IMG/VR virus record: IMGVR_UViG_3300050821_009413 | Location: 17,490 to 81,489 of that record | DNA from: a virus | Lineage: Duplodnaviria > Heunggongvirae > Uroviricota > Caudoviricetes | Direction: 5' to 3' (one strand) | DNA length: 64,000 nt | Shown here: in pieces, positions 20,246 to 49,548 of the stretch | Position numbering within the stretch: the first letter of the stretch is position 1 | Layout: every line of letters starts with the position of its first letter | Made by a program: the position numbers and the translations under genes | The notes under the pieces: model-generated | The model's database searches: none | What the model was told of the DNA's origin: nothing | What the model saw: the letters and a program-made list of their open reading frames with translations, nothing else

Positions 20246-20297
20246 GCCGGGGCGGCGGGTGGGAGTTGGGCATCGCACACATCATGGCCGCCCCGGC
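20246..20297 (-). ncRNA. TIGR-like dual-guide hairpin (solo)
   Basis: Minus strand: GCCGGGGCGG-CCA-TGATGTGTG-CG-ATGC-CCA-ACTCCCACC-CG-CCGCCCCGGC. Confidence 0.75.
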
Positions 20298-20404
20298 TCT
20301 TTCTAGAGTACCGTTGTTGCGCCCACAGGTCACCCCCGGCTTTACTGAAATCGAACAGGTCGAAGATCACCCATTCGGCCAGGTCCAACGGCCACGTCGG
20401 GAGC

Positions 20405-20788
20405 TTAAACATTCGTGTTCAAAAGTTTGCATTGGTGCACTGGGCGGCGCAACAGCGGGTCTCGGGTGTGGGTGCCGGTTTCGATGATCCGATCGGTAGC
20501 CCCGAGCACGCCGGCGTCTTGCAGTCCTTTGAGGACCCCTTCGGTGTCGCCGTAATTACGTAGGAACACCGATCCAGGCGGTGGGACCTCGCCCATATCC
20601 ACTAAGCTCACTGTGGCGTCGCATAAGATCTGCCCGTAGCGGCCAATCAGGGTCAGTTTGGTGCTGCCGTCAGGGTAAGTTCCTGTGCGGACGGTGACAT
20701 AATTGTCGCGCCAGATTTTAGCGCGTAGTTGAAACGTCACGGAACGACCCCTTCTTGTTGGCCTTGTCCGTCTGATGGTAAGCCTCAT
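20405..20788 (-). CDS. Hypothetical protein
   Basis: ORF; YxDGS..ATV.L..P..VFL..Y..EG.L..L..AG pattern; start uncertain. Confidence 0.5.
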   Translation of the reverse strand: MRLTIRRTRPTRRGRSVTFQLRAKIWRDNYVTVRTGTYPDGSTKLTLIGRYGQILCDATVSLVDMGEVPPPGSVFLRNYGDTEGVLKGLQDAGVLGATDRIIETGTHTRDPLLRRPVHQCKLLNTNV

Positions 20789-20932
20789 TACGTAGCCATT
20801 TGGCTTAACCGCGCCGTGTCAACGATGTTTGATCAGGGTGACTATGATCCACGCCAGCGACGGCGGCCCGGTCAACCAGCCCGCCGTGTAGGGGAGATTG
20901 TGGATGAGGTCATGCACCATCTGCGCGTTCAT

Positions 20933-21568
20933 TTAGGCGTGCTGTAGATATTGGGGGCAGTAGGCTTGGATCGCGGCCTGAACTGTTCCGTTGGCTTCTT
21001 GCCATGTGAGCGGCTTCCCGGTGTCGGGTTCTTTGTATTTGTCCATGAGCGCCTCAGCCGCTGAGCTGGGTGTGGCACCAGGCTGCGCCAGGTAGTCGCA
21101 TTGCTGGTGGCCGAGCACGATCAGCACATCAGGGTCGGCGACCCCAAGTCCTGTGAGCTGGGAGAACAAGCGCAGGTAAAGCTCGTCTGGGGTTTCCGGC
21201 GGCGGCGTGACTGTGGTGGTGAAGGTTCGCGGTGCTTGCGCAGTCACTGGTGGCGCAGCGACGGTTGAAGAACGTTGGGACGGCGGCTGGTAGGACACCA
21301 AGAAGATCACGATCGCCGCGCCGATGGCGACCGCCAGGGCCGCGGCCACCGTTTTGATTACAGCGTCCCGGAATCCGCGCTGTTCGATGGGTGCCGGCTC
21401 GGTCAGCGGATAGTCCACCACCTCCGGACCGTTGACCCACGCCCGGGCGTACGGGTCGGCCCACGCGGCATATGCCAGCCCGGTTTGCGCGTCGGCGTCG
21501 GCGGCTTCACCCGTCATGGTCGAGGCGTCTGCGGTTCCTTCCAGCAGCTTTCCCTGTTCGGGATCCAT
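20933..21568 (-). CDS. DUF732-like membrane protein
   Basis: One TM helix, then D..YL..L..G...CDYL..A...YCPQY. Confidence 0.75.
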   Translation of the reverse strand: MDPEQGKLLEGTADASTMTGEAADADAQTGLAYAAWADPYARAWVNGPEVVDYPLTEPAPIEQRGFRDAVIKTVAAALAVAIGAAIVIFLVSYQPPSQRSSTVAAPPVTAQAPRTFTTTVTPPPETPDELYLRLFSQLTGLGVADPDVLIVLGHQQCDYLAQPGATPSSAAEALMDKYKEPDTGKPLTWQEANGTVQAAIQAYCPQYLQHA

Positions 21569-21896
21569 GGCTCCTCCTCAGGGGTGGCGATACATCATTG
21601 GATAGGTATGTTGTCTCACCGGTGAGACGCTGCACCGGGATGTTTTCTGGGTCTTCGTAGCTGCGCAGCGACAGCCCTCGGGCTTCGGCCTCTTTGATGT
21701 ATTTGGTTTCAGTGACCCGGTTGTGGCAGGGCCTGCATAGGTGCAGGATGTTCGCTGGTATCCACTTGCCGCCCAGGCTGCGGGGAACGCGGTGGTGCAT
21801 GTCGCAGGCCCGGGCTGCGCAGCAGCCTTCACAGATCCCGCCGGATCTGCCGGCCACCGCCGCCCGGGTGTCCGACTCGTTCCATGCGTGTGGCAC
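21507..21896 (-). CDS. HNH endonuclease
   Basis: RSGGICEGC..HHR..RSLGG..NILHLC..CHN. Confidence 0.8.
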   Translation of the reverse strand: MPHAWNESDTRAAVAGRSGGICEGCCAARACDMHHRVPRSLGGKWIPANILHLCRPCHNRVTETKYIKEAEARGLSLRSYEDPENIPVQRLTGETTYLSNDVSPPLRRSHGSRTGKAAGRNRRRLDHDG

Positions 21897-22075
21897 GCAT
21901 TCATTTTGCCGTGTGAGCTAGCCATTTCTCGCCGGCGCTCTTAGCGCCACGCTCGGTTTTATAAAGTTTCGGCCCCACGTATTCGGCACCACCGGGGGTG
22001 ATGTACCGGAACCGGAACTCGCCGTCTTTGGTTTTCATGACATCAACCTCGCCGCCAGCTACGACGGACTGGTTC

Positions 22076-22297
22076 TTAGTCGCCACGGGACTGCTCCGAT
22101 TGCAGGCTGCGTATAGCTTCTTCGATATAGCACAGCGCGGAGAAAAACTCGGAGAACGCGAACACCGCGGTGACTGTCCAGGTTATCGACCAGCCATGAG
22201 GGCTGTCGTGAAAGATGTTGAGGAAAACGGATCCAAGGATGGCCAGCAGCCAGATGATGTGCCGGTTGCGTGTCGCTTTCATGCGGCGCGCGTCCAT
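22076..22297 (-). CDS. Small membrane protein
   Basis: Two hydrophobic segments; coupled to neighbours. Confidence 0.5.
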   Translation of the reverse strand: MDARRMKATRNRHIIWLLAILGSVFLNIFHDSPHGWSITWTVTAVFAFSEFFSALCYIEEAIRSLQSEQSRGD

Positions 22298-22569
22298 TAG
22301 GCCTCATCCATGCCGTCGTAAATGATCTCCTCGAGGGGTGGGTAATCGACGTTGGACTCGGCCCGCGCTGCGCGGCGCAACTGCCGGACTCCTTTGACGG
22401 CGTAGATCACCACGTCGAGCGCCAACCAAACGATCAGGCAGGTCACGAACTGGCCCCAGGTGGGCTGTGGGGTATGCACCCACAGCCCACCCAGCCACAC
22501 CGCCAGCATCCCGAAGGCCAGGCCAACGGTCGCCTGCATCAGTTGGTTCCGCTGTTCATGGACCACCAC
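22297..22569 (-). CDS. Small membrane protein
   Basis: Two hydrophobic segments. Confidence 0.5.
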   Translation of the reverse strand: MVVHEQRNQLMQATVGLAFGMLAVWLGGLWVHTPQPTWGQFVTCLIVWLALDVVIYAVKGVRQLRRAARAESNVDYPPLEEIIYDGMDEA

Positions 22570-23447
22570 GTGGCCAGCCGGGGTCCGCTCTTGCCACGGT
22601 TGTAGGTTTCCACGACCGCCACCGCGATAGCGTGGGCAACTGAGATGTCGTACTTCAGTTTAAGGCGCTCCGCCTCGCCCTTGAGGCCATTCACGCCGCC
22701 CCTCTTAGCGGCAAGGCGAGCGATCAAGACGCTCTCGTTGAAGCCGCCGACACCGTACATTTCCACGAACGAACCCACGCCCTCGGTCACTTTCGCGGCG
22801 AACCCGGGCATGCCGAACGAATCGCGGATAATCCGCAGCGTCGCCGCCAACACCTCAGGTCCTGCATGGCTGTAGATCTTCTGCACCGCACCGACGCAGC
22901 CGATACCGTCACGCTGCCCACCGATACTGAGGTCCGCGGCCCGAACGATACGGTCGATGTCGCACTCGGCTTCGCGGCCAGCGATAACACCCTGCTTGTA
23001 CTTGTCCAGGCCCGACACCGGCTTGGTATCGTTGAGGGCCAAAAACTTGTCGGCCTCCTCGGCCTCCGACAGCCCCTTATAGGTCCAGCACTGAAGCAGC
23101 TGGTCTTCCCAGCCGAGCTGGATCACGGACAGGTAGCGGTGCCCGCCGTCGATGACCCAGTAGGTGCCGTCGCGGAAGTTCACAGTCAACGTCCCAAACT
23201 TGTCGGGATCGAAATGCCTCGTGATGTCATCGATCTTAGCGATGCTGCTGGCGGTGTCGTGGCGGCGCTGGGCCACCTCGGAGATCCGCATCAACGCGAC
23301 AGGAATCCACTCAAGGTGCTTGTCGCCGCTGCTGATCTTATCGTGGGCCACAACAGGCTGTCTACGGGCCTGCCGCGGTGCCGGCTTCACACCGTTACCG
23401 GTATCGGGCTTAACCAAAGTGGTGGCCCGTCCTGCTCCTCGACTCAC
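22539..23447 (-). CDS. ParB-like (DUF6551-type) protein
   Basis: FDPDKFG.L.V..YWVIDGGHR..EEA..F..LN. Confidence 0.7.
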   Translation of the reverse strand: MSRGAGRATTLVKPDTGNGVKPAPRQARRQPVVAHDKISSGDKHLEWIPVALMRISEVAQRRHDTASSIAKIDDITRHFDPDKFGTLTVNFRDGTYWVIDGGHRYLSVIQLGWEDQLLQCWTYKGLSEAEEADKFLALNDTKPVSGLDKYKQGVIAGREAECDIDRIVRAADLSIGGQRDGIGCVGAVQKIYSHAGPEVLAATLRIIRDSFGMPGFAAKVTEGVGSFVEMYGVGGFNESVLIARLAAKRGGVNGLKGEAERLKLKYDISVAHAIAVAVVETYNRGKSGPRLATWWSMNSGTN

Positions 23448-24790
23448 TTATCTTGCTCCTTTACTTTGTTGAGGAACTTCCTGATGGTGTCCATCGACCG
23501 AAAGACATCGGTGATGTCATCTTTGTGGTTGGTCAGATCCACTTCCCATGGATCTGTTTCCTCGGCGATGAACGCCAAGCTGTTCATGGTGATGAAAATG
23601 TCGGTCATCACCTTTCTGGCCGCGGCGGTTTTCCGGACTTTGCGCGGCGGCGGGGCATCTGTTATCTCTTGGAGGATCTGGGGCGCTGACTCGGTGGCGG
23701 TCAACTGGGTTCTTCGCACGTCGTCCAGGCGTAAAGCTGGAAACCCGACGCCATATCGTGCCCTGTAGAACTGGTTCTGAAGTGTCGATATCGCCAGATG
23801 TCCCCCATGGTTGGCGGGGAACAGGAACGCGTCCATGTCAGGCTCAACGTACTGCACCAAGTGGTCTTTAAGGGCCGGAACCAGAGCTTCTGGAATCACC
23901 ACATCCCGCGGCGGGGTGCGACTACCGGGCTTCATAACGTAGACGATGAAGCTGGTGCGGCTCTTCACGGCCCGCCGAACACGGATCAGCCTTTCGTCGA
24001 TGTCGATGTCGCCGCGGCGAAGCTCTTGAAGCTCCCCAAAATGGAGCCCGCACCACGCAGTGAGAAGTACCAACATCTGGTACTTCTTGGGCATGGCCTT
24101 GGCTAGCTTAGCCACCTCGTCTAACGTCAAAGACGTCCCGCCGGTAGGCGCTGGCTTCTCTGGCTTCGGCTCAGGCTTTCGCACCGCGCGACACAGCCGA
24201 GCGACATTGGTCCGCGACAAGCCGGTCTGAGTTCCGTCGCGGGCCTGCGTGAGCACCTGCTCAAACTCCTCATCTGTTAAGCCGTCAGTCAAGGCGTACA
24301 CGCCGTTGTTCCCCTCGTCTCCGGACAGCTCCTTCTTGGGGAGTAGGTTGCAGATTTTTTGGGGGTGCCGGTTCTGCCCTTTGACGGCGACTTCGCCATG
24401 CTGTTGGGCGTCGCGGATCGTCTGGCCGAGCTTACGGTCGGCGCGGCGGCTAAGTTCCATCGCGTCGAACTTCAAATCCTTCAGCCTAAGCTCGACGCAG
24501 ATCTTCTGAATCGCGTTCGCCTGCGACCTGTATGCGATGACACCGGAGATGTCGCGTACCACCGCGGCTGCGCCCAGCCCGGCACGCGCCTGCGTTAGGA
24601 GCGTCTCTACCTCACGGGCTTGGCTTTCGGGGTGCAGCGACAGCAGTATGCGTCCCTGTTCTTCGGCTGGCATGTCAGCCAGCGACGGCTGGTGACCGTT
24701 TTTGGCTTGCCCGGTCTGCGCCTGGTAAGATTGTTTAGACAGCCCGTTGGCTTGTCTTGGCCGGCTAGCGGCCTCCGATCCCTTTGCCAT
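23444..24790 (-). CDS. Chimeric protein with inserted, catalytically degenerate tyrosine-integrase core
   Basis: WCGLHFGELQELRRGDID..RDV.IP..LFP..LRLDDVRRT; no catalytic Tyr segment; ATG at 24790. Confidence 0.65.
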   Translation of the reverse strand: MAKGSEAASRPRQANGLSKQSYQAQTGQAKNGHQPSLADMPAEEQGRILLSLHPESQAREVETLLTQARAGLGAAAVVRDISGVIAYRSQANAIQKICVELRLKDLKFDAMELSRRADRKLGQTIRDAQQHGEVAVKGQNRHPQKICNLLPKKELSGDEGNNGVYALTDGLTDEEFEQVLTQARDGTQTGLSRTNVARLCRAVRKPEPKPEKPAPTGGTSLTLDEVAKLAKAMPKKYQMLVLLTAWCGLHFGELQELRRGDIDIDERLIRVRRAVKSRTSFIVYVMKPGSRTPPRDVVIPEALVPALKDHLVQYVEPDMDAFLFPANHGGHLAISTLQNQFYRARYGVGFPALRLDDVRRTQLTATESAPQILQEITDAPPPRKVRKTAAARKVMTDIFITMNSLAFIAEETDPWEVDLTNHKDDITDVFRSMDTIRKFLNKVKEQDK

Positions 24791-24905
24791 ACCTAAAAGT
24801 ATATCACACCCCGGTACCATAACCAATTCTTGGGGTACAGCGCAGCCCGCTGGCGTTACGGCGCGCCTCACCGAACTTGTCATACCCTGGTGTTTTAGTG
24901 ACGGC

Positions 24906-25778: not shown

Positions 25779-25849
25779 AAATCTGCGATTCCACCACCGA
25801 CACGGCGCGTCACTAGCAGGAGCGGCACTGCCGTGTATATGGTACCCGA

Positions 25850-26476: not shown

Positions 26477-26587
26477 CTCGGAACCGATGGTCACCTTCTT
26501 AGGTTTGTCGGTGGAGGTGCATACCGTTCAGAACAGGAAGCTTCCTGATCATCACCGCCACAACGCAACCAGAGAAGGGCTAATACG

Positions 26588-27517: not shown

Positions 27518-27871
27518 CCCGCCAGTAAACATCTGTTTGGACGTACGTACCACTTTTCCCAGCAAACCCCAGGATGGACACTTGCCTAATTACAACGATG
27601 TAATTTTTGCCAATAGCTTGGGAAACGCGTGCGTCAATAATAGGGTTTCCACGTCTTATTTCAGTACCTCTCGTGCAGCGGGGATCGGCGGAACAGAACT
27701 TAGTTCTACCGAGGGGCTCACCGGGATACCGACCGCATGGGGCAGAAGGGAACAAGGTAGTTACCGAGATGGCCACCCTAGGAAAATGGTACGGGTCGGG
27801 AAGATGCCGCGGACACAGAAGGTAACCCCAGAAGTCTTCCGAAGCGCGCATCCAAGACGCGAGGCCACCTG

Positions 27872-30313: not shown

Positions 30314-30698
30314 CCGACCGTAGGATTTGGACGCGTGACGGCTGGGCGGACCTGCGGGCTATGCAGGATTTCCGCACAGAGAGCGGTGTGCAGGCGATGA
30401 TCGACCAGTACGCGAACAGCTTGCCGGCGGAGTTACAGGACGCGACCCGCGACGTGTATGTGCGCGCCTACCGGCGCGCCGGTTTGTTGCCGGGCAACCC
30501 GGATGAGATCGGTACCAGGCTTCCGGCTTTGCGGAACCCGGAAAAGCCAGTAGAGTGTGATTCAGCCTCCGCATCCGCTGCTTGGACTTCGGATGCGGAG
30601 TGCCCTCCAGGTCCGGGGACGGCCAGAGACGGCATGTCACCCATCGACAATTTGCCGTCCCCGGATCCCGCGGGACCCGAAACCTGAGGAGAAATCGA

Positions 30699-31989: not shown

Positions 31990-32025
31990 GCCTGTCAGTA
32001 CCCGCCTGCTGGGAGTTTCAAAACA

Positions 32026-35159: not shown

Positions 35160-36166
35160 CCGACAACGATCCGCTGGCGGGCAGGCTCGACCACACATAT
35201 ACTGAAGACCACGGGGACGGCCACCGCGCACGTGATACCCATAGCCCCACTGCCGTCCCCGTTTCAAGCCCTAACTTGTTCGCCGAAGTTACCTGGGAAA
35301 AGACCGACGCCCCACTAGTCGGGGACATGGCCAGGATCCTGCGCGCCGGGCAGTGGGACATCAACAAAATGGCCCACTATCTGCCGGTCTACGAGTCGGC
35401 GTTCGGTGACCGCCATCGCCGGGTGAGGGTGCTTGAGATCGGTGTCAATGTGGGCGGTTCGTTGGAGCTGTGGCGCAAATGGTTCACCAACCGCGGCTCA
35501 GTGATCGTGGGTATCGACTACAACAACAGATGTGCCCAGCTGGAAAACCCGGCCAAGAACATTCACATCAGGATAGGTAAGCAGCAGGACACCGAATTTC
35601 TGCAACGTGTGGTTGAGGAGTTCGGCCCGTTCGATGTAATCCTGGACGACGGCTCCCACATTCCCAGCTTCACATTGAAATCCTTCCAGTACCTGTTCGT
35701 TAACGGACTCAACGACGGGGGATCATATGTTGTGGAGGATTTGCACGCCTGCTATTCCCCAGATTCTTGCGAGCCGTTCCCAGAAGGCCACCCCGAGCTT
35801 GCTGACGCCAATGACGGGTCGCCCACATTCACAGAATTCGTTAAAAATCTGATTAATGTAATGCACGCACACTGGGTGCAGATGCCGACCGGTTTGGACA
35901 TCGACAAGGTTGAGCCAGACAACCCCGCGCGGGTCGATTCATTCCAGGTTCCGTGGGCCACGAAAATGATCAAAAGTATCGAACTACACGATGCGATCGT
36001 TGTTATTAGGCGAGGCGAAAAGGAACTCCCACGCATGATCCGCCGCTGGTCCGAAGAGAAGATGTCGTTGATCGGAAAGCCTGACGACGCCGCCCGATTC
36101 CTTTACGAAAAATTTCCTCATCTCGGTGAGGCCGACAAGACACGACGCGACTATTGGAGCAGATGA
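35156..36166 (+). CDS. Class I SAM-dependent methyltransferase
   Basis: VLEIGV..GGS..W..GID..GKQ.D..FDVILDDGSH..YVVED. Confidence 0.8.
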   Translation: MTDNDPLAGRLDHTYTEDHGDGHRARDTHSPTAVPVSSPNLFAEVTWEKTDAPLVGDMARILRAGQWDINKMAHYLPVYESAFGDRHRRVRVLEIGVNVGGSLELWRKWFTNRGSVIVGIDYNNRCAQLENPAKNIHIRIGKQQDTEFLQRVVEEFGPFDVILDDGSHIPSFTLKSFQYLFVNGLNDGGSYVVEDLHACYSPDSCEPFPEGHPELADANDGSPTFTEFVKNLINVMHAHWVQMPTGLDIDKVEPDNPARVDSFQVPWATKMIKSIELHDAIVVIRRGEKELPRMIRRWSEEKMSLIGKPDDAARFLYEKFPHLGEADKTRRDYWSR

Positions 36167-41498: not shown

Positions 41499-41807
41499 TC
41501 ACCAGGCCACCGTCGGCGGCAACATAATCAACGGCGGCTCAACAACCCTTTTCGCGCGCATACAGTCGCAACCGCTGCAACCAGCAGCACAATCACGCTG
41601 CTCCGGAGCGCAACAAGGACACGAAGCCCCACGCGCAAACAAATCAGGATTACTCGTCATATCGGAACCTTCTAGGAGGGCTTTCTGCTTATGCGCATCA
41701 ACCACGGTTTTGTGACAACCCACAACCATGCCGGTCTTTGTGTCGGTGACACTGACCGGCGCACCGAACGGGCAGTTCTCGTCACCGGTTTTGATCGCGA
41801 AACGCAT
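41499..41807 (-). CDS. Hypothetical Cys-rich protein (possibly two small genes)
   Basis: First ORF downstream of the leftward guide array. Confidence 0.45.
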   Translation of the reverse strand: MRFAIKTGDENCPFGAPVSVTDTKTGMVVGCHKTVVDAHKQKALLEGSDMTSNPDLFARGASCPCCAPEQRDCAAGCSGCDCMRAKRVVEPPLIMLPPTVAW

Positions 41808-41846
41808 CGCCTAATAATAAGTGGTCAGAGGGCTAGTGGGCGGTGC

Positions 41847-41897
41847 TCCGGGCCGGCGATTCGCCTTGGGGATCGTGCACTCTATAGCCGACCCGGA
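41847..41897 (-). ncRNA. TIGR-like dual-guide hairpin
   Basis: TCCGGGTCGG-CTA-TAGAGTGCA-CG-ATCC-CCA-AGGCGAAT-CG-CCGGCCCGGA (first box variant CTA). Confidence 0.65.
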
Positions 41898-41912
41898 ACG
41901 CCGCGGCTGGGG

Positions 41913-41966
41913 CTTCAGGACGGCGCTCTCGTTTTGGGGAACGGGCTCAAGATGGCCGCCCTGAAG
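41913..41966 (-). ncRNA. TIGR-like dual-guide hairpin
   Basis: CTTCAGGGCGG-CCA-TCTTGAGCC-CG-TTCC-CCA-AAACGAGAG-CG-CCGTCCTGAAG. Confidence 0.8.
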
Positions 41967-42001
41967 CGGTCGATGGGCTTCCTTTCGTTGCTGGGGTGGC
42001 C

Positions 42002-42046
42002 CGGGCGGCGGACACGTCTTGGTTTGCACGGAATCATGGCCGCCCG
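42002..42046 (-). ncRNA. TIGR-like dual-guide hairpin
   Basis: CGGGCGG-CCA-TGATTCCG-TG-CAAA-CCA-AGACGTGTC-CG-CCGCCCG. Confidence 0.8.
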
Positions 42047-42057
42047 AACCACCCAAG

Positions 42058-42063
42058 AGTATA
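42058..42063 (-). promoter_or_regulatory. Putative leftward -10 box (TATACT)
   Basis: 12 nt upstream of first leftward guide hairpin; -35 not clear. Confidence 0.45.
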
Positions 42064-42218
42064 GCAGCCAACTGGCACCTTGCGTCCAGCCTTAACGACC
42101 TGCTACACTTACACCATGTTCACTGCGCGCAACCACACACGACCGTCGTGGCCCTGGCCTTATACGGCCCAGGGTTAATAGCGCGCATCACCACCCGCTA
42201 GCAACCCCGGGCTACAAC

Positions 42219-42297
42219 CGGGGTGTGGGCCAACTTGGTAGGCCACCTGCTTTGGGTGCAGGCATCGCTGGGGGTTCGAATCCCTCCTCCCCGACCA
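42219..42297 (+). tRNA. tRNA-Pro(TGG)
   Basis: Cloverleaf; cctgc-TT TGG GT-gcagg; encoded CCA. Confidence 0.9.
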
Positions 42298-42298
42298 C

Positions 42299-42372
42299 AT
42301 ACCCGTGGTGTAGTGGTAGCACAAGGGCCTCCAAACCCCTTAGTGTGGGTTCGATTCCTACCGGGTGTGCCA
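42299..42372 (+). tRNA. tRNA-Trp(CCA)
   Basis: Loop CT CCA AA; TTCGATT; encoded CCA. Confidence 0.9.
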
Positions 42373-42393
42373 ACTTTGGGTGCGCGCTTTCAT

Positions 42394-42472
42394 GCGGGTC
42401 AGCGACGGGTGTCGCAAGCCGCCTGTAAAGCGGCTGCCGTTGGCATGGACAGTTCGAGTCTGTCGGCCCGCA
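42394..42472 (+). tRNA. tRNA-Tyr(GTA), reduced D loop
   Basis: gccgc-CT GTA AA-gcggc; long variable arm; 4-nt D loop. Confidence 0.8.
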
Positions 42473-42482
42473 CGATAGCTGG

Positions 42483-42512
42483 TTGCGTAGCCAATGGCCA
42501 CCATGGTATGAT
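42483..42512 (+). promoter_or_regulatory. SigA-type promoter
   Basis: TTGCGT-N18-TATGAT. Confidence 0.6.
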
Positions 42513-42558
42513 TTAAGTAACGGCAATTGCTATGACTTTTGACAACTGAAAACATTGT

Positions 42559-42630
42559 GCGACCGTGGCCGAGTGGCGAGGCAACAGCCTGCAAAGCTGT
42601 TCTACGCGAGTTCGATTCTCGCCGGGCGCT
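42559..42630 (+). tRNA. tRNA-Cys(GCA)
   Basis: acagc-CT GCA AA-gctgt. Confidence 0.9.
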
Positions 42631-42634
42631 CAAA

Positions 42635-42680
42635 CCGGCGGCCATTCCCAGTACGTTCCCCAGATGGCAACTGCCGCCGG
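42635..42680 (+). ncRNA. TIGR-like dual-guide hairpin (between tRNA-Cys and tRNA-His)
   Basis: CCGGCGG-CCA-TTCCCAGTA-CG-TTCC-CCA-GATGGCAAC-TG-CCGCCGG. Confidence 0.85.
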
Positions 42681-42687
42681 GTCAATC

Positions 42688-42758
42688 CCTGCGTTAGCCT
42701 AGTGGTAAGGCATCTGGTTGTGATCCAGAGAACCGGCGTTCGATTCGCCGACGTGGGA
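42688..42758 (+). tRNA. tRNA-His(GTG)
   Basis: tctgg-TT GTG AT-ccaga; lacks G-1/C73. Confidence 0.85.
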
Positions 42759-42840
42759 CAGTGGGCCAGGGTTCCCAGTGTTTGCCCTCATTGAGGCCGT
42801 GGCTCCGGAGCCAAGAAGCCCACGAACCGGAGCATTTAAA

Positions 42841-42911
42841 GCGGATGTGGTGTAGTGGTAACATCTCACTCTTCCAAAGTGATGTCGCCGGTTCGAACCC
42901 GGTCTTCCGCT
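42841..42911 (+). tRNA. tRNA-Gly(TCC)
   Basis: tcact-CT TCC AA-agtga. Confidence 0.9.
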
Positions 42912-43018
42912 CGCTAGCACCCCTCACCGCTGATGCTGGGGCATCACGCGCCGAAAGGCCTGGGGGGCGCTGACCCGAAACGGTGAGAAGGGTTGGCAAC
43001 AAAAATGCTGGCACCAAA

Positions 43019-43438
43019 GGGGCCGAAAGGTTTCGACAGGTGATTTGACAACTGAACAGCGGGCAAGTGTTGACCGCATTTCTACTTTGAGTGAACGCGG
43101 TAAAAAGATAAACGTCGACACTAACGACGCAACGGTCACCGAGGCCGACTTCGCCGAGATCGAGGCTTTCGCCAACGGTCTCGTCGCCGTCTGAATCGGC
43201 TGACCAGCCTGAAACAAGCTGACCGCTCGCAGCGTTTCGGGCTTAAAATCTAGAAGCGGTAGACCAGACGACAGCCACGTCTCTAAACCGGGTTGGCTCC
43301 CGCCGTAGGGAGTTATTAGGTGCGGCTTTGGTAGCAGGAGTTGTCTCGTACAACCTGCGCCGAGAAGTAAACGAGACTACGCCCGTAGAACCCTTTTAGA
43401 TAAAATCCTGGACCCGTGTTCGATTCACGGCGGCTCCA
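43019..43438 (+). ncRNA. ssrA: tmRNA
   Basis: GGGGCCG/CGGCTCC acceptor with G3.U70; GGTTTCGAC 5' motif; T arm at 3' end; tag ORF 43114..43194 (A)VDTNDATVTEADFAEIEAFANGLVAV*. Confidence 0.92.
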
Positions 43439-43442
43439 CAAA

Positions 43443-43488
43443 GGGAAGGCCAGGTAGAGCGTGACACCCAAAAACAGGATGCCTTCCC
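43443..43488 (+). ncRNA. TIGR-like dual-guide hairpin (between tmRNA and tRNA-Ala)
   Basis: GGGAAGG-CCA-GGTAGAGCG-TG-ACAC-CCA-AAAACAGGA-TG-CCTTCCC. Confidence 0.85.
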
Positions 43489-43492
43489 ACCT

Positions 43493-43565
43493 GGGGATAT
43501 AGCTCCAACGGTAGAGCAACTCCTTTGCAAGGAGACGGCTGGGGGTTCGAATCCCTCTATCTCCA
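43493..43565 (+). tRNA. tRNA-Ala(TGC)
   Basis: GGGGATA start; loop TT TGC AA. Confidence 0.9.
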
Positions 43566-43614
43566 CACCGTGCGGGCACGGTATTGGCAGGAATCGACCT
43601 GCCAGCCCGCACTT

Positions 43615-43687
43615 GCCTAGTTAGCTCAGATGGAAGAGCGTCCGGTTGAAGCCCGGAAGGCCCAAGGTTCGACTCCTTGACTTGGCA
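43615..43687 (+). tRNA. tRNA-Phe(GAA)
   Basis: tccgg-TT GAA GC-ccgga. Confidence 0.9.
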
Positions 43688-43852
43688 CAGGGCGGAGCGG
43701 CTTGCACCAGGTACCGGGTTGCAGGTTCCTTCGGTGAGAGCCGAGGGTCGGTCGTTGTTCGCGACAGCGACCGGGAACCGCCCGTTAAGTACAGGCTGGT
43801 GTTCGCACGCACCGCTCCGATGCACCCGCGCCGTCGGGGGCCTGTACTTGAT

Positions 43853-43923
43853 GCCCGATTAGCTCAATGGGAGAGCACCCCGTTCACACCGGGGATACTG
43901 GGGTTCGATTCCCTGATTGGGTA
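43853..43923 (+). tRNA. tRNA-Val(CAC)
   Basis: ccccg-TT CAC AC-cgggg. Confidence 0.88.
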
Positions 43924-43926
43924 CAA

Positions 43927-43972
43927 GGGACGGCCATACCCGATGTGTTACCCAAGTGCGTTCTGCTGTCCC
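43927..43972 (+). ncRNA. TIGR-like dual-guide hairpin (between two tRNA-Val)
   Basis: GGGACGG-CCA-TACCCGATG-TG-TTAC-CCA-AGTGCGTTC-TG-CTGTCCC. Confidence 0.85.
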
Positions 43973-43976
43973 GATT

Positions 43977-44048
43977 GTCCTGTTAGCTCAGTGGTAGAGC
44001 GCCGCGGTGACATCGCGGAGGCCCGGAGTTCAATCCTCTGACGGGACA
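43977..44048 (+). tRNA. tRNA-Val(GAC)
   Basis: ccgcg-GT GAC AT-cgcgg. Confidence 0.88.
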
Positions 44049-44049
44049 C

Positions 44050-44310
44050 ATGATGAAATGGTCTTGGCGTTGCGCCAGCTGCACGAATCGTGTGGTTATT
44101 GAGTCGGATTTTGCGGGCGCTGTTCCGCGGCGTGTGGTGTGCGCACAGTGCCGCGGGGCGGTCGTCGCGGAGTGGCCACATTCACGCGCGTTAGGGGAGC
44201 GGTGGATAGTGTTTCCGTGTCCGTGGCCGGCTGACCAGAAATGGCCTGGCCTAAAATTTTTTGCTACTCGCGAAGAAGCGCAGGATTGGGTACAATCGTT
44301 ACAACCATAA
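44050..44310 (+). CDS. Small Cys-rich hypothetical protein within tRNA array
   Basis: CxxC..CxxC pairs. Confidence 0.5.
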   Translation: MMKWSWRCASCTNRVVIESDFAGAVPRRVVCAQCRGAVVAEWPHSRALGERWIVFPCPWPADQKWPGLKFFATREEAQDWVQSLQP

Positions 44311-44363
44311 GGAGCTACGGAATGAAGCGAAAGCAGACAACGCGAACTACCGCGTACTTTCGC

Positions 44364-44435
44364 GCGCCCGTAGCTGAGTGGTTATAGCTCGAGACTCTTA
44401 ATCTTGAGACGTGGGTTCGATTCCCACCGGGCGTA
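44364..44435 (+). tRNA. tRNA-Lys(CTT)
   Basis: cgaga-CT CTT AA-tcttg. Confidence 0.9.
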
Positions 44436-44440
44436 CGTAC

Positions 44441-44485
44441 GGGACGGCCAATTCGTTGTGATTCCCAAAAGATGGCCGCCGTCCC
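44441..44485 (+). ncRNA. TIGR-like dual-guide hairpin (between tRNA-Lys and tRNA-Thr)
   Basis: GGGACGG-CCA-ATTCGTTG-TG-ATTC-CCA-AAAGATGGC-CG-CCGTCCC. Confidence 0.82.
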
Positions 44486-44491
44486 GTCGCT

Positions 44492-44566
44492 GCCACTGTA
44501 GCTGTTGTTGGCATCAGCACCGACCTCGTAAGTCGGAGAGCGCGAGTTCGATTCTCGCCCGTGGCT
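44492..44566 (+). tRNA. tRNA-Thr(CGT)
   Basis: ccgac-CT CGT AA-gtcgg. Confidence 0.85.
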
Positions 44567-44570
44567 CGAA

Positions 44571-44616
44571 GGGACGGCCAAACGCCAAGCGACACCCAGA
44601 GACCGGTTGCCGTCCC
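44571..44616 (+). ncRNA. TIGR-like dual-guide hairpin (between tRNA-Thr genes)
   Basis: GGGACGG-CCA-AACGCCAAG-CG-ACAC-CCA-GAGACCGGT-TG-CCGTCCC. Confidence 0.85.
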
Positions 44617-44620
44617 GCAC

Positions 44621-44691
44621 GCCGACATAGCATAGTGGTAGTGCGCTTCCATGGTAAGGAAGTGGCCCGGGTCCGATTCCCGGTTTCGGCT
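44621..44691 (+). tRNA. tRNA-Thr(GGT)
   Basis: cttcc-AT GGT AA-ggaag. Confidence 0.88.
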
Positions 44692-44696
44692 CGATC

Positions 44697-44742
44697 TCGA
44701 CGGCCATTGAAGATGCGGCACCCATACCTGAACTGCCGTCGA
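44697..44742 (+). ncRNA. TIGR-like dual-guide hairpin (between tRNA-Thr genes)
   Basis: TCGACGG-CCA-TTGAAGATG-CG-GCAC-CCA-TACCTGAAC-TG-CCGTCGA. Confidence 0.85.
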
Positions 44743-44747
44743 GACGC

Positions 44748-44820
44748 GCCGTTGTAGCTCAACTGGTAGAGCACTCGCCTTGTAAGCGAAAGGTTCGGGG
44801 TTCGAGACCTCGTAGCGGCT
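44748..44820 (+). tRNA. tRNA-Thr(TGT)
   Basis: tcgc-CT TGT AA-gcga. Confidence 0.9.
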
Positions 44821-46184
44821 CAGCTGTTGGTGACGGTGAGCCCGGCGATCGTGACTTGGGAGTTTCCGACGCCGGCCACGCCTACCTGCGTTCCGATGTC
44901 GGCGTATAGGCCGAATTGGAGGAACGGGGTTCCTCCGTCGCCGGAGTACACGGTGGGAACGCCGGTGTGGTTGACGTATTGGGTGCCGTCCAGCGACAGT
45001 TGGTAGAACCCGTCAGTGCCCAGCGACCAGCGGACTTTGATGGTGACGTGGTGCCACGTGTTGAACGTTAGCGGTGCCCAGGTGTAGAGGTAGTTCGCGC
45101 CTGCCGCGTGTTGGAACCCGAACCGGAACGAAGGAACCCCGGCACCGCCGGGTCCGCGTCCGGTGTTGTCCAGTTCGACGGTGTGCCCGCTGGAGACGCC
45201 TGGTGTGTGGAATTCCATCAACACCCCGCCGTTCCATGAGGTGACGACACCTTGGGTGGGGAGGTAAAGGTAGGCGTCCCACTGTTGGGTGGTGTTCATG
45301 GCGACGTCTTTGCCGGCGCCTGGGTTGACTTTGGCGAGGACAGCTTTCATCGTGTTGTCCCACAGGGTGACGTCGGTGGTGTCGGAGACAACGCACTGCC
45401 AGCCGGGGCCGAATGGTGTGGTGACGATCTGGAAGTCCGGTGTGAGTTGGACTGCGGGGTTGTAGAACGTTTTCCGCGCGAACAGCAGCAGCAGGTCGGA
45501 CAGCGCTGAGATGCTGCCAGCTGGTGGCGGCGGTGGTGGTGGTGTGACAACTGATTCGGTGGCCGACAGGACACCATGCCCGGCTGGCGCGCCGGACGCG
45601 ATTCCCGGTGGCGGCGGGGGTGGTGGTGTTACTGGGGCGATGTTGAGGCTGGCGATCATGTCAACGCTGGTGCCGCTGTTCTGCCGCGACGTGAACAGCA
45701 GGTTGCAGGCACTCAAAGCGAGTGTGCTGTATGACAGGCTGGACAGCTGCGTCCACGCGACACCGTCGGGGGAGGCGTCTAAGTATCCGACACCGGCGGA
45801 TTCGCGTAGCCGCAACCAAGCGTGGCTGGTCGGGTTGTACAGGACCCCGGGCGCGGATGCGTAGGCACCCGCAACGAACCGGTACAGGAAGATGACCGGT
45901 TTCGTTCCGCCTGAAATTTCCAGGCCGAACCGGTTGTTGCTGTCCGCGAGTTCGGTGCGCAGGTCGAACAGGAATGTCCGGTCGGAGGTGTCTCCGATGG
46001 TCACTTTCGCGAACACGGTGGACCCGACGAAGCTGTATTGCGCTTTGGTGTGCGCCTGCACGGTCCATGTCGCGGCTGCGGCCAGGTTCAGGGCACCACC
46101 AGACACTGATGCGCCCGTCCCGTATGACCAGACCGTAGTGTTGGGGGCTGAGAAGTTATCGGTTAACGACGAGATGAGCGCCAC
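44820..46184 (-). CDS. Two-domain lectin/ConA-like + polysaccharide-lyase-like protein with Pro-rich linker
   Basis: N-terminal YNPTSHAWLRLRES..G..Y.DAS.DG..W domain; PPPPPPP linker; C-terminus paralogous to 18735..19466. Confidence 0.65.
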   Translation of the reverse strand: MALISSLTDNFSAPNTTVWSYGTGASVSGGALNLAAAATWTVQAHTKAQYSFVGSTVFAKVTIGDTSDRTFLFDLRTELADSNNRFGLEISGGTKPVIFLYRFVAGAYASAPGVLYNPTSHAWLRLRESAGVGYLDASPDGVAWTQLSSLSYSTLALSACNLLFTSRQNSGTSVDMIASLNIAPVTPPPPPPPGIASGAPAGHGVLSATESVVTPPPPPPPAGSISALSDLLLLFARKTFYNPAVQLTPDFQIVTTPFGPGWQCVVSDTTDVTLWDNTMKAVLAKVNPGAGKDVAMNTTQQWDAYLYLPTQGVVTSWNGGVLMEFHTPGVSSGHTVELDNTGRGPGGAGVPSFRFGFQHAAGANYLYTWAPLTFNTWHHVTIKVRWSLGTDGFYQLSLDGTQYVNHTGVPTVYSGDGGTPFLQFGLYADIGTQVGVAGVGNSQVTIAGLTVTNS

Positions 46185-46214
46185 AGCGCAACTCCTTCAG
46201 GAGGCGAAACAGTC

Positions 46215-46397
46215 TTACAGTGCGGTGATGTTAGATCCGGAAACACTGATGGTGACCGCGTCGTCGCCTCCGGAAGCGATAACGTCCACATTTTTCAGCC
46301 AAGCACGCAAAGCGTTAAGTGAGCACGGAGTGGCGAGCGTCGCCGCGGGAGGCGGTCCGCTGGTTACCGGCGCAACAATATGTCTCGAAGAAGCCAT
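46215..46397 (-). CDS. Micro-protein, tandem paralog 4
   Basis: HIV..GPP..LATPCSLNALRAWL..GG..VTI; RBS aggaaaaggg. Confidence 0.75.
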   Translation of the reverse strand: MASSRHIVAPVTSGPPPAATLATPCSLNALRAWLKNVDVIASGGDDAVTISVSGSNITAL

Positions 46398-46408
46398 TTC
46401 CCTTTTCC

Positions 46409-46588
46409 TTACGCCGCCGTGATCTTAGATGAGGTGGTGGTGATGGTGACGTCTTCTTCGCCACCGACGCCGAGGACGTCCATCTGCTGCAACCAAACAC
46501 GCAAAGCGTTCAGCGTGCACGGGGTGGTTAGGGTTATCGGAGGCCCAACTTGCAGGCTTCCTTGAGAACCAACGATGTGCTTAGCCAT
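46409..46588 (-). CDS. Micro-protein, tandem paralog 3 (59 aa, missed by ORF track)
   Basis: MAKHIVGSQGSLQVGPPITLTTPCTLNALRVWLQQMDVLGVGGEEDVTITTTSSKITAA. Confidence 0.75.
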   Translation of the reverse strand: MAKHIVGSQGSLQVGPPITLTTPCTLNALRVWLQQMDVLGVGGEEDVTITTTSSKITAA

Positions 46589-46605
46589 AGTCGAAACCTT
46601 CCTGT

Positions 46606-46794
46606 TTAGGCGGCTGTCATGGTTGAGCTGGTGGTGGTGATGGTGACCGTCCCGGTGCCACCGGCACCGACGATCGTCACCAGGCCGTCCAGCCAGGCGT
46701 GGAGCTGCATCAAAGTGCAGGGCGTAGACAATGGTGCCGGCGGCCCGACCTGAGCGCCGCCCTGGCTACCAACAATGTGCAAAGATGAGGCCAT
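46606..46794 (-). CDS. Micro-protein, tandem paralog 2
   Basis: HIVGSQGGAQVGPP..TPCTL..L.AWL..VTITTTSS.MTAA; RBS aggag. Confidence 0.75.
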   Translation of the reverse strand: MASSLHIVGSQGGAQVGPPAPLSTPCTLMQLHAWLDGLVTIVGAGGTGTVTITTTSSTMTAA

Positions 46795-46806
46795 TCTGCT
46801 GCTCCT

Positions 46807-46995
46807 TTAGGCCGCGGTAACAGTGTTTGAGGTGGTGGTGATAGTGACAACGGTTTCGCCGACGCCGCCACCAAGAGCGTCGATGTTGTTCACCCAGTTC
46901 AGCAGCGCTTGCAGCGTGCACGGGGTGGCCAGGTTAGCCGGAGGCCCCACCTGCATCCCGCCCTGCGACCCGGTGATGTGGTCGGAAACGGCCAT
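46807..46995 (-). CDS. Micro-protein, tandem paralog 1
   Basis: HITGSQGGMQVGPP..TPCTLQALL.W..VTITTTS..VTAA; RBS gagagga. Confidence 0.75.
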   Translation of the reverse strand: MAVSDHITGSQGGMQVGPPANLATPCTLQALLNWVNNIDALGGGVGETVVTITTTSNTVTAA

Positions 46996-47088
46996 GGTTC
47001 ATTCCTCTCCAAGAATGGATCTACATCATGATGAACCGGAATTGCCGGTGTACAACGTCAGGCACACCGTGTTATCATCGATGTAATT

Positions 47089-47160
47089 GCACTAGTGGCC
47101 TAGTGGTATGGCGTCACCTTGCCAAGGTGAAGGACGCGGGTTCGAGTCCCGCCTGGTGCT
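47089..47160 (+). tRNA. tRNA-Gly(GCC)
   Basis: tcacc-TT GCC AA-ggtga. Confidence 0.9.
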
Positions 47161-47163
47161 CGA

Positions 47164-47215
47164 TCTTGATCTGCCATTCCACTGATGTCTCCCATCTGTA
47201 GCTTGCGGATCAAGA
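47164..47215 (+). ncRNA. TIGR-like dual-guide hairpin (between tRNA-Gly and tRNA-Asp)
   Basis: TCTTGATCTG-CCA-TTCCACTGA-TG-TCTC-CCA-TCTGTAGCT-TG-CGGATCAAGA. Confidence 0.85.
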
Positions 47216-47219
47216 CCAT

Positions 47220-47294
47220 GGTTCTGTAGATCAGCGTGGAGTGATCGCCGCCCTGTCACGGCGGAGGCCGCGGGTTCGAGTCCCGTCAGAGCCG
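47220..47294 (+). tRNA. tRNA-Asp(GTC)
   Basis: ccgcc-CT GTC AC-ggcgg. Confidence 0.9.
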
Positions 47295-47355
47295 CATGTA
47301 TATAGATGGTCTGCGAATTAAGCAGCGACGCCAACCGCGTCGCTGATTTCCGCAC

Positions 47356-47427
47356 GCCCGTCTAACTCATTGGCAGAGTGGCACCCTGATATGGTGCTGG
47401 TACGAGGTCCGATTCCTCGGATGGGCA
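47356..47427 (+). tRNA. tRNA-Ile(GAT)
   Basis: gcacc-CT GAT AT-ggtgc. Confidence 0.88.
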
Positions 47428-47428
47428 C

Positions 47429-47500
47429 GCCTTTGTAGCTCAGAGGAAGAGTGCTTGACTACGAATCAAGAGGCCGCAGGTTCGACTCCTGCCAGGGGCA
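47429..47500 (+). tRNA. tRNA-Arg(ACG)
   Basis: cttga-CT ACG AA-tcaag. Confidence 0.9.
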
Positions 47501-47501
47501 C

Positions 47502-47780
47502 GTGACCGTTAAGTTTGATGATGTGTCTAAGGCGTGGGCGTCAGCGAAGCTGACGAAACACCACGTCGCGCACACGGCTATCCGTAACGTCGACTTCGAC
47601 ATCATGGCTTCTGGGGGCTGTGTCGGGCACGGCGAGAATGAGTACTGCTACTGCGACACGTCGGCGGACGTTGACATCACGATCTACTACTTCAATAAAA
47701 CCAAAAAATGCAGCTACTACACAATTAACTGCGGCGAATACAGTCTAGGTTCCTTACTTAAGGAGCTGGTGGAGTGGTAA
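47502..47780 (+). CDS. Hypothetical protein within tRNA array
   Basis: GC..C.C motif; starts right after tRNA-Arg. Confidence 0.5.
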   Translation: MTVKFDDVSKAWASAKLTKHHVAHTAIRNVDFDIMASGGCVGHGENEYCYCDTSADVDITIYYFNKTKKCSYYTINCGEYSLGSLLKELVEW

Positions 47781-47794
47781 CAAACATACGCAAC

Positions 47795-47866
47795 GCCTCC
47801 GTGGCGCGGCGGTCTGCGTATCATGCTTATAACATGAAGGTTCGGGTTCAACTCCCGACGGAGGTA
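47795..47866 (+). tRNA. tRNA-Ile(TAT)
   Basis: tcatg-CT TAT AA-catga; acceptor gcctccg/cggaggt. Confidence 0.8.
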
Positions 47867-47923
47867 CAATAGGAACATGATCCAGCGACGGCGTAGAGAC
47901 AGGCGACAACAACATGTCGCCAT

Positions 47924-47998
47924 GCCGTCGTAGCTAAATCGGATGTAGCATCAGCTTTCTAATCTGCGTTTATGCGGGTTCGAGTCCCGTCGGCGGCA
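47924..47998 (+). tRNA. tRNA-Arg(TCT)
   Basis: Loop TT TCT AA; weak anticodon stem; good acceptor and T arms. Confidence 0.8.
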
Positions 47999-48004
47999 CC
48001 CAAA

Positions 48005-48078
48005 TGAGGTGTGGGGTAATTTGGCAGCCCGCTGGATTTTGGTTCCGGACGATGAAGGTTCGAGTCCTTCCGCCTCAG
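48005..48078 (+). tRNA. tRNA-Gln(TTG)
   Basis: ctgga-TT TTG GT-tccgg. Confidence 0.88.
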
Positions 48079-48082
48079 CTCA

Positions 48083-48152
48083 GCCTTCGCCAGCGGACCT
48101 GGCGTCGGGGTTCCGATCCCCGGCTGCGGCAGTTCAACTCTGCCCGGGGGCG
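48083..48152 (+). tRNA. tRNA-Arg(CCG), atypical short D arm
   Basis: cgggg-TT CCG AT-ccccg; D arm ccag-cggac-ctgg abuts the acceptor stem. Confidence 0.7.
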
Positions 48153-48156
48153 CGAG

Positions 48157-48231
48157 GCCGCCGTGGCTGAACGGATAAGCACTCCTCTCCTAAGGGAGCT
48201 TATGCAGGTTCGAGTCCTGCCGGTGGCACCA
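48157..48231 (+). tRNA. tRNA-Arg(CCT)
   Basis: ctcct-CT CCT AA-gggag; encoded CCA. Confidence 0.9.
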
Positions 48232-48309
48232 CCGCCCGCCCGTTTAATTAACACACCGCTGGCGTGTTTCGGGTAGGTTTTAGCCGGTGGCTGGGTTACA
48301 GTTCCGGTC

Positions 48310-49347
48310 ATGCGAATGCTTGCCTGGGTTGCGTTAGCTTTCGGGATCCCAACCGCGGCCTGGTGGACGTTTTTTTGGGCTGGCCTGCCGGTTCGGCGTG
48401 GGGAGTGGAAGTTTTTCACGGGCTGGATTGACGATTCGTCGCAGGAGACAACCCCGGGCCGGTGGAATCATGTCCGCCGGTACAGCGGGGAGATGCACTC
48501 CCGCGGTCACCCGCTCGCGCGGTGCCAAAGCAACCATGACGGGTCCCGGTTCGTTGTGTTGAACCTGGACCATTTCGGCTACCCGTGGGATGGTGGTTGT
48601 TTGGCGCGCAGGCTGCGCAGGTTGATCGATTTCGCTGCCCGGAGCGCGCTGGTTCAGGTGTTCCCGATCCCGAACGCGGCGTGGCACAGGCTGACACCCC
48701 GGGGCAGCGAGCGCCGTGAGTACAACTTTCGTGTGGTGCAGCGCCGCGGCAGGGAGTGCGTGTTCACTAGGACACACAAGTCGGGTGGGGATCCCGACTA
48801 CTTTCTGTCCGGGTTTGACCGTAATGAGCGCCCTGCGCTGTATTTTTTGACGCAGCTGCCCGGTCCGGTGGAGTCGATTCGGGCTGCGCGGGAAGCGTTG
48901 AAGCCGGACAGTGTGTTGATGGCCCTGGCTGGTGGCCGGAAGGTGTACCGGCAGGGCGACATGTTCGCTATCTGCACCGATCTGACGACCGCCGAGATTA
49001 GGGCGTTGGGCGGCACGGTGGAGGTGCTTACCGCCTATGCCGCCGCCGCCGACCGTGATGCGTTCGCGTTGTATGGGACGGCGCACACCGCGGACTATGT
49101 GGCGACGATGCCCGACGGGACGATGCTGGCGTTCGGGAAGATGCGTCACACGCCGTGGCTGATCGGCGATAACCGGGAGCCGGATCATAAGCCGTTAAAG
49201 TTGAAACGCGGCAGGTGGCATTTGGTCGCGAAGAACACCACCCCGATGGTCAAACCCGTCGAACCTGATCAGCCGTTTCAGAGTGTTGTGCGGCGGTTGG
49301 CGGCAGGCGACCAGGTGGCTATCACTTACATGCCGGAGGGGAGGTGA
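48310..49347 (+). CDS. Hypothetical phage protein
   Basis: C-terminal RQGD..H..RH..H motif seen in actinophage accessory proteins. Confidence 0.55.
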   Translation: MRMLAWVALAFGIPTAAWWTFFWAGLPVRRGEWKFFTGWIDDSSQETTPGRWNHVRRYSGEMHSRGHPLARCQSNHDGSRFVVLNLDHFGYPWDGGCLARRLRRLIDFAARSALVQVFPIPNAAWHRLTPRGSERREYNFRVVQRRGRECVFTRTHKSGGDPDYFLSGFDRNERPALYFLTQLPGPVESIRAAREALKPDSVLMALAGGRKVYRQGDMFAICTDLTTAEIRALGGTVEVLTAYAAAADRDAFALYGTAHTADYVATMPDGTMLAFGKMRHTPWLIGDNREPDHKPLKLKRGRWHLVAKNTTPMVKPVEPDQPFQSVVRRLAAGDQVAITYMPEGR

Positions 49348-49493
49348 ATGAATTGAAGGATGTCACGTTGTTAGAGCGTGTCAGCGAGGAGGTTTCGGAG
49401 ATCAAGGCCGAGAACAACCTCACCCCGGATCAGCCGGTGAAGTACGAGCCGATGGCGTGGACCCGTCAGGGTTTCGCCGACTAAGACCTTGTT

Positions 49494-49548
49494 GTCCGGG
49501 GCTGGCCATAGTTGCTGTGATATCCAGACCGAATCCGCCGCCCCGGAC
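49494..49548 (+). ncRNA. TIGR-like dual-guide hairpin (solo, intergenic)
   Basis: GTCCGGGGCTGG-CCA-TAGTTGCTG-TG-ATAT-CCA-GACCGAATC-CG-CCGCCCCGGAC. Confidence 0.8.

Follow-up and report, generated by a model that had tools for sequence, protein, structure and literature searches.

Do hairpins scattered through a 64,000-nt stretch of viral DNA encode guide RNAs of a TIGR-Tas system, and if they do, which protein do they serve and what do they recognise? The stretch, referred to here as the window, comprises bases 17490-81489 of a single 145,489-bp IMG/VR virus record (IMGVR_UViG_3300050821_009413; 59% GC). An original prediction made from the sequence alone had listed twelve such hairpins as guides, each with two spacers (A and B) and a target made up of spacer A followed by the reverse complement of spacer B, A+rc(B). 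TIGR-Tas systems were first described in 2025, what they target in nature and how stem-loop guides mature are stated open questions, and the TIGR authors describe natural targets as not yet determinable. The analyses presented here make it probable that the 14 hairpins of the window, together with others that bring the number in the genome to 37, are genes for stem-loop TIGR guide RNAs (tigRNAs), and that these RNAs belong to a TIGR-TasA system encoded in the 145-kb genome of a mycobacteriophage-like virus.

The same family of hairpins was recovered independently by a repeat search, which added two units to the twelve within positions 20246-49548 of the window. All twelve A/B spacer pairs were found at the places given for them, and each of the 17-18-mers listed as a target is indeed A+rc(B). 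An alignment of the 14 window units yields the layout stem-CCA-N9(8)-YG-N4-CCA-N9(8)-YG-stem. Box C is CCA except in 2 units, whose first box is CTA; box D reads YG, with an invariant G and a Y that is C or T; and the spacers are mostly 9 nt long, 8 nt in a few units and 7 nt in one. The strict motif was observed 3 times, as compared with no matches in 100 shuffles. Within the 10-bp stem, 94% of cells are paired and compensatory changes are seen at 8 of the 10 pairs, a level of pairing and covariation that was reached by 0 of 500 shuffles and from which slid registers also fell far short; the outer stem is closed in the minimum-free-energy folds of all 14 window unit RNAs. A covariance model built from the window units recovers 14 units from the window and brings the number for the whole 145-kb genome to 37, with each match scoring far better on one strand. 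Information content is about 2 bits at the box positions (1.0-1.1 at the Y of box D), 1.2 bits in the stem and 0.2-0.3 bits in the spacers, all 74 of which are distinct across the 37 units. In the work of Faure et al. 2025 (PMC12045711), box C is CCA and box D is UG, and stem-loop TIGR arrays have two 8-12-nt spacers between the boxes, inside variable palindromes. The premise that TIGR geometry applies is thus borne out by the boxes, by the 8-9-nt spacers and by the palindromic stems.

The original prediction had found no open reading frame (ORF) with a Nop domain in the window, and six-frame searches confirm that the effector lies outside it; Pfam six-frame searches with the Nop (PF01798) and IS110 C-terminal (PF02371) domains gave no match. 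Scanning IMG/VR for the unit motif and then looking for ORFs that recur beside units brought out a 336-aa ORF common to 8 unit-dense viral loci. In the present genome this is a single Tas gene on the minus strand (genome 101058-102068, 336 aa), which lies 19,569 bases beyond the window end and of which no second copy was found in the genome. Since a canonical Tas gene is present in the same genome, the guides are neither orphan nor in need of a different effector, as had been suggested. The ORF matches the whole of the NCBIfam profile NF052498 TIGR_Tas over residues 65-298 (E 4e-56, 190 bits, cut-off 100), and in comparisons with the PDB it matches TasR (9mty, E 5e-8) and TasH (E 3e-3). A Foldseek search with an AlphaFold 2 (AF2) model placed TasR and TasH at the top (E 1e-7 to 1e-6), with IS621 recombinase next. 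The model (predicted local distance difference test score 77.6) consists of a disordered segment (1-60), a coiled coil, a Nop-like core, a small beta-hairpin (257-267) and a long C-terminal helix. Invariant residues H253, C257, C260 and H277 at the beta-hairpin are possibly metal-binding. Because no nuclease domain was found in the protein by Pfam search, and no further folded domain in the AF2 model, we assign it to the TasA type; the effector is a TasA-type Tas protein. Two units lie within the disordered 5' coding part of the gene (residues about 12-57). Directly upstream of tasA is a gene for a 167-aa protein (phrog_4604; genome 102065-102568, minus strand). Of the 26 loci with a TasA match, 13 have this gene in the same place, among them loci in Tsukamurella, Streptomyces and Mycolicibacterium genomes. 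This protein, which has no significant Pfam match (best E 0.0018, below cut-off) and no PDB or Atlas lead, is predicted to be a conserved TasA partner.

Relatives of this TasA are present in Mycobacterium, Mycolicibacterium, Tsukamurella and Nocardia genomes and in 83 cultured Mycobacterium phages; those in genomes were found with a 4-sequence alignment, as a single-protein query gave none and a 7-sequence alignment was too divergent. In the 83 phage records, the TasA-like genes are named transposase, helix-turn-helix (HTH) protein or hypothetical protein. One of them encodes the TasA homologue gp70 of phage Euphoria (NC_023726, record 44013-45100), annotated 'transposase'; the 336-nt gap directly upstream, which has no annotation, contains about 5 stem-loop units in tandem. 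Such cluster-A mycobacteriophage 'transposases' (Euphoria gp70, phrog_4285) are 42-49% identical to the present TasA, come with the same unit type and have a Mycobacterium host; in GenBank they are annotated as transposase or hypothetical, not as Tas. The units of Euphoria stand in tandem just upstream of the gene, whereas those of the window's phage are scattered. The host of this phage, too, is most likely Mycobacterium or a close relative, since 424 of the 472 phage matches of its minor tail protein (window 1453-2931) are to Mycobacterium phages.

Among known systems, the closest comparison is with stem-loop TIGR-TasA (PlTasA of a Peromyscus leucopus gut contig, BlTasA and MbTasA; PMC12045711; Xu et al. 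2026, bioRxiv 10.64898/2026.09.09.750476; Guan et al. 2026, bioRxiv 10.64898/2026.08.11.744272). These systems likewise have no nuclease domain found, two 8-9-nt spacers bracketed by CCA/UG, variable palindromic stems and units inside the 5' part of tas; Xu et al. describe stem-loop systems with units inside the disordered 5' part of tas and flexible unit positions near it, in a survey of about 10 kb around tas. They differ in that the published units are clustered within a few kb of tas, whereas the 37 units here extend over about 121 kb of the 145-kb genome, with seven precisely between tRNA or tmRNA genes, and in that few of the units here (2 of 37) have the CUU motif that published units show at the base of the stem. 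The dual-repeat TIGR-TasR and TasH systems (TaTasR, PDB 9mty; SpTasH, PDB 9w04) share the Nop-like core, the CCA/UG boxes and 9-nt tandem spacers reading both DNA strands, but possess a RuvC or HNH nuclease domain and 36-nt units without long stems, and lie beside regular tandem arrays. We place the present system as a variant of TIGR-Tas because most of its units are away from tas and not in a tandem array beside it: 2 of the 37 are at tas. As units adjoin tas in Euphoria and in those TasA-bearing bacterial contigs that were searched, the genome-wide scatter is the derived feature.

The window carries 30 transfer RNA (tRNA) genes and one transfer-messenger RNA (tmRNA), the only families that reach threshold in an Rfam scan of it. 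Seven units fill gaps between these genes, starting 0-3 nt after a tRNA or the tmRNA and ending 2-5 nt before the next tRNA (Table 1). A search of 12 unit-dense IMG/VR loci gave no tRNAs. Contigs from soil RNA libraries match tRNA-unit stretches without mismatch, and units 42633, 44571 and 44695 (named here by their first position) are spanned together with flanking tRNAs, which is compatible with a polycistronic precursor; library cover of 41800-48300 is partial, and the leftward trio of units falls in the parts without cover.

A number of observations weigh against a TIGR-TasA system. In contrast to published loci, the window units stand alone or in threes at 19.6-64 kb from tas, with no tandem array; and the contigs from RNA libraries carry no information on strand or ends and could reflect DNA carry-over. 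The searches for targets, which covered both A/B orders with gaps of 0-2 and used shuffled A/B pairs as controls, add to these. In the phage's own genome, at two mismatches or fewer, true pairs did no better than 370 shuffled pairs. Related viral loci (0.96 Mb) gave 15 and 13 two-mismatch matches where 11.3 and 10.3 were expected. In 1.06 Mb of Mycobacterium, Mycolicibacterium and Tsukamurella DNA, the counts equalled those of 1332 shuffled pairs, bar three one-mismatch matches, two of which came from one short 16-nt guide; the 14 window guides gave one two-mismatch match in this DNA. Exact scans of IMG/VR returned 2, 2, 1 and 1 matches for four true pairs, as compared with 5, 3 and 0 for three shuffled pairs, and for six guides, scans of 61-151 Mycobacterium genomes per guide returned no exact match. 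True A+rc(B) pairs thus matched no more often than shuffled pairs in any database tested, the outcome that the original prediction had named as refuting it, and the predicted targets are unsupported. This result is no proof that the hairpins lack a guide function. The A+rc(B) geometry itself is judged correct because, in our own derivation through both orders, it is the sole order to yield the 3' overhangs that have been published; Faure et al. (PMC12045711) report that cutting at spacer position five leaves 8-nt 3' overhangs, that gaps of 1-2 bp are tolerated, and that the system still works when A and B are swapped.

Individual matches were also considered as candidate targets. Those of the true pairs in IMG/VR were rejected, as they fall in unrelated contigs of GC 0.33-0.60. 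A metagenome scan of guide 44571 gave 109 matches in diverse coding contexts, with about 41 flank families at gap 0 as compared with 6 and 15 at gaps 1 and 2 (counted by eye). The largest group, of about 16 copies, has a lipoprotein-like signal peptide (read from the flanks) and no counterpart in 151 Mycobacterium genomes. We rejected the gap-0 excess as a target signal; it fits chance matches favoured by the codon frame, and the 109 matches are judged to be no more than a collection of this size would give by chance.

Of the alternatives to a TIGR-TasA system with targets elsewhere, the one that survives best, while still improbable, is that the guides act on the DNA of the phage itself or of its very close relatives, in temporal regulation or superinfection exclusion, with mismatches beyond the resolution of our searches. 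The GC content of the spacers (0.54) is closer to that of the phage (0.59) than to that of mycobacterial DNA (0.63-0.68), and published TasR acted on a site in E. coli that one spacer matched at just 6 of its 9 positions. The genome contains two A+rc(B) sites with a single mismatch: a gap-2 site at a gene junction (genome 124122-124141), and a match of unit 30610 on itself. The earlier statement that there is no self-match is thus right in general and wrong for this unit, albeit trivially: the unit matches its own gene because its spacer A (GAGACGGCA) agrees at 8 of 9 positions with the complement of the unit's 3' stem. Unit 30610 may have an alternative RNA fold or be degenerate. Against targeting of own DNA stand the searches at two or fewer mismatches, in which true pairs were not above shuffled ones either in the phage genome or in the 0.96 Mb of related loci, and the finding of no self-target in the cultured phage Euphoria.

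Also improbable, and next in order, is that the hairpins are structural or selfish repeats, whether similar to repetitive extragenic palindromes (REP) or miniature inverted-repeat transposable elements (MITE), or terminators or RNA-processing signals, in which the spacers would be fast-drifting loop positions without guide function. The units are scattered, mostly intergenic, GC-rich palindromes, and no search gave a target. A further point on this side came from the spacers themselves. Some predicted targets had been said to read like codons across the A/B join, but no in-frame coherence was found across 268 distinct spacer pairs. The GC periodicity of A and rc(B) has an apparent coherence at shift 1 (z 3.4 and 2.75). 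We rejected a coding target as its source and ascribe it to weak A:B complementarity in the hairpin register, because the excess of A/rc(B) identity is confined to that one register, with none at shifts -5, -2 and 4 and no pair with more than 5/8 matches. In this register, A and B show slight complementarity (A[k] with B[7-k]; 28.5% vs 25.6%, z = 3.2), with 54 pairs having 4-5/8 matches where 31.5 are expected (268 pairs, from this genome and related loci). Such complementarity counts in favour of structural or selfish repeats; against them, conservation is sharply two-part, with the conserved positions being exactly the published TIGR boxes, a cognate Tas gene with two units inside it is present in the same genome, and the same unit type is found beside tas in relatives. 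As for intrinsic terminators, these were ruled out because a T-run (at least 4 within 10 nt 3' of the hairpin) follows only 1 of the 37 hairpins, whose loops are of about 30 nt.

Finally, the role left open by the original prediction, in which box C/D-like guides would pair with host or phage rRNA, tRNA or tmRNA and direct their modification or processing, is very improbable: the dual-guide layout is akin to that of C/D RNAs, seven units sit in the tRNA operon like the plant tRNA-small nucleolar RNA (snoRNA) genes cited by Faure 2025, and the Tas fold is related to Nop5 (weak Foldseek matches), but antisense 9-mers are at shuffle level on phage tRNAs and tmRNA (2 exact vs 1.2 for shuffled spacers) and on mycobacterial 16S and 23S (1 exact vs 1.4; 41 vs 38.6 with at most one mismatch), no fibrillarin was found in six frames of the genome, the boxes are CCA/UG and not the k-turn RUGAUGA/CUGA, and published TasR is inactive on RNA substrates. 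One of the units inside tasA (genome 101899-101950) has exact 9-nt antisense matches to RNAs of the phage itself, of spacer A to the CTA tRNA and of spacer B to the tmRNA tag region, a double match that is probably a coincidence, given that overall counts are at chance.

If the hairpins are tigRNA genes of a TIGR-TasA system, analogy with published systems suggests how they would work. A TasA dimer would bind each hairpin at its C (CCA) and D (UG) boxes, spacer A would pair with one DNA strand and spacer B with an adjacent stretch of the other, and the DNA target would read A+rc(B), with a gap of 0-2 bp tolerated. Since no nuclease domain was found in TasA, the expected outcome would be binding and transcriptional repression rather than cutting. 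The positions of the units suggest that they would be transcribed with neighbouring genes, and that the seven in tRNA/tmRNA gaps are probably released by RNase P and tRNA 3'-end enzymes. We tentatively extend this to a proposal that is somewhat likelier to be wrong than right, namely that the tRNA operon is a guide-RNA production line, from which seven tigRNAs would be excised by RNase P and tRNA 3'-end enzymes to make up, with the 30 scattered units, a 37-guide repression programme of one nuclease-free TasA. Were this true, it would be a natural counterpart of engineered tRNA-guide RNA (gRNA) arrays and would name the host RNase that matures stem-loop tigRNAs, for this lineage. Plant dicistronic tRNA-snoRNA genes and synthetic polycistronic tRNA-gRNA arrays similarly have a guide RNA flush between tRNAs and releasable by tRNA-processing enzymes, although there the guides serve fibrillarin small nucleolar ribonucleoproteins or Cas9, whereas release by RNase P/Z is here suggested by position. 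Because its guides lie flush between tRNAs, from which RNase P/Z could release them, the genome is suited to a clean test of guide maturation. Surveys within about 10 kb of tas, such as that of Xu et al., would miss most guides of such phages, and the 'transposase'-annotated TasA homologues in 83 cultured Mycobacterium smegmatis phages would offer a tractable laboratory system.

Table 1. Candidate tigRNA units of the window, in window coordinates; distances in brackets are from the preceding and to the following gene, and scores of covariance-model (CM) matches are in bits where available.
Position	Strand	Spacer A	Spacer B	CM match	Context and remarks
20242..20301	-	TGATGTGTG	ACTCCCACC	yes, 54.6	3' end of leftward operon
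30610..30667	+	GAGACGGCA	TCGACAATT	yes, 52.3	absent from original prediction; target GAGACGGCA+AATTGTCGA
35211..35262	+	CCGCGCACG	TAGCCCCAC	yes, 51.9	absent from original prediction; target CCGCGCACG+GTGGGGCTA
41840..41904	-	TAGAGTGCA	AGGCGAAT (8 nt)	yes	CTA box C variant; third of leftward trio
41912..41967	-	TCTTGAGCC	AAACGAGAG	yes	target: 0 matches in 61 Mycobacterium genomes
41991..42057	-	TGATTCCG (8 nt)	AGACGTGTC	yes	19-bp stem
42633..42682	+	TTCCCAGTA	GATGGCAAC	yes	tRNA-Cys/tRNA-His gap (1 nt / 5 nt); spanned by RNA-library contig 42533-43264
43443..43488	+	GGTAGAGCG	AAAACAGGA	yes	tmRNA/tRNA-Ala gap (3 nt / 4 nt)
43927..43972	+	TACCCGATG	AGTGCGTTC	yes	tRNA-Val/tRNA-Val gap (2 nt / 4 nt); mostly covered by RNA-library contig 43931-44081
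44439..44487	+	ATTCGTTG (8 nt)	AAAGATGGC	yes	tRNA-Lys/tRNA-Thr gap (2 nt / 4 nt)
44571..44616	+	AACGCCAAG	GAGACCGGT	yes	tRNA-Thr/tRNA-Thr gap (3 nt / 4 nt); spanned by RNA-library contig 44449-44768
44695..44744	+	TTGAAGATG	TACCTGAAC	yes	tRNA-Thr/tRNA-Thr gap (2 nt / 3 nt); spanned by RNA-library contig 44449-44768
47162..47217	+	TTCCACTGA	TCTGTAGCT	yes, 41.9	tRNA-Gly/tRNA-Asp gap (0 nt / 2 nt); divergent A/U-rich stem
49499..49544	+	TAGTTGCTG	GACCGAATC	yes	downstream of rightward gene; target: 0 matches in 61 Mycobacterium genomes

Several other features of the window were noted. Its tmRNA (43019-43441) has 83% identity over 160 nt with that of Mycobacterium phage Phabba and is the deepest part of the region in contigs of four soil RNA libraries. 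A 69-nt tRNA with anticodon CTA (labelled Pyl) was called by ARAGORN at 56634-56702 and is below the threshold of the Rfam tRNA model; it is possibly an amber-suppressor tRNA or a false call. At 46215-46869, a segment of about 63 nt occurs in four diverged copies with a spacing of about 195 nt that coincide with a run of small ORFs and resemble tandem paralogous mini-genes. Diverged internal repeats (72-85% identity) common to large rightward structural genes are found at 2128-4120 and 10722-13894, in the region that also encodes the minor tail protein.

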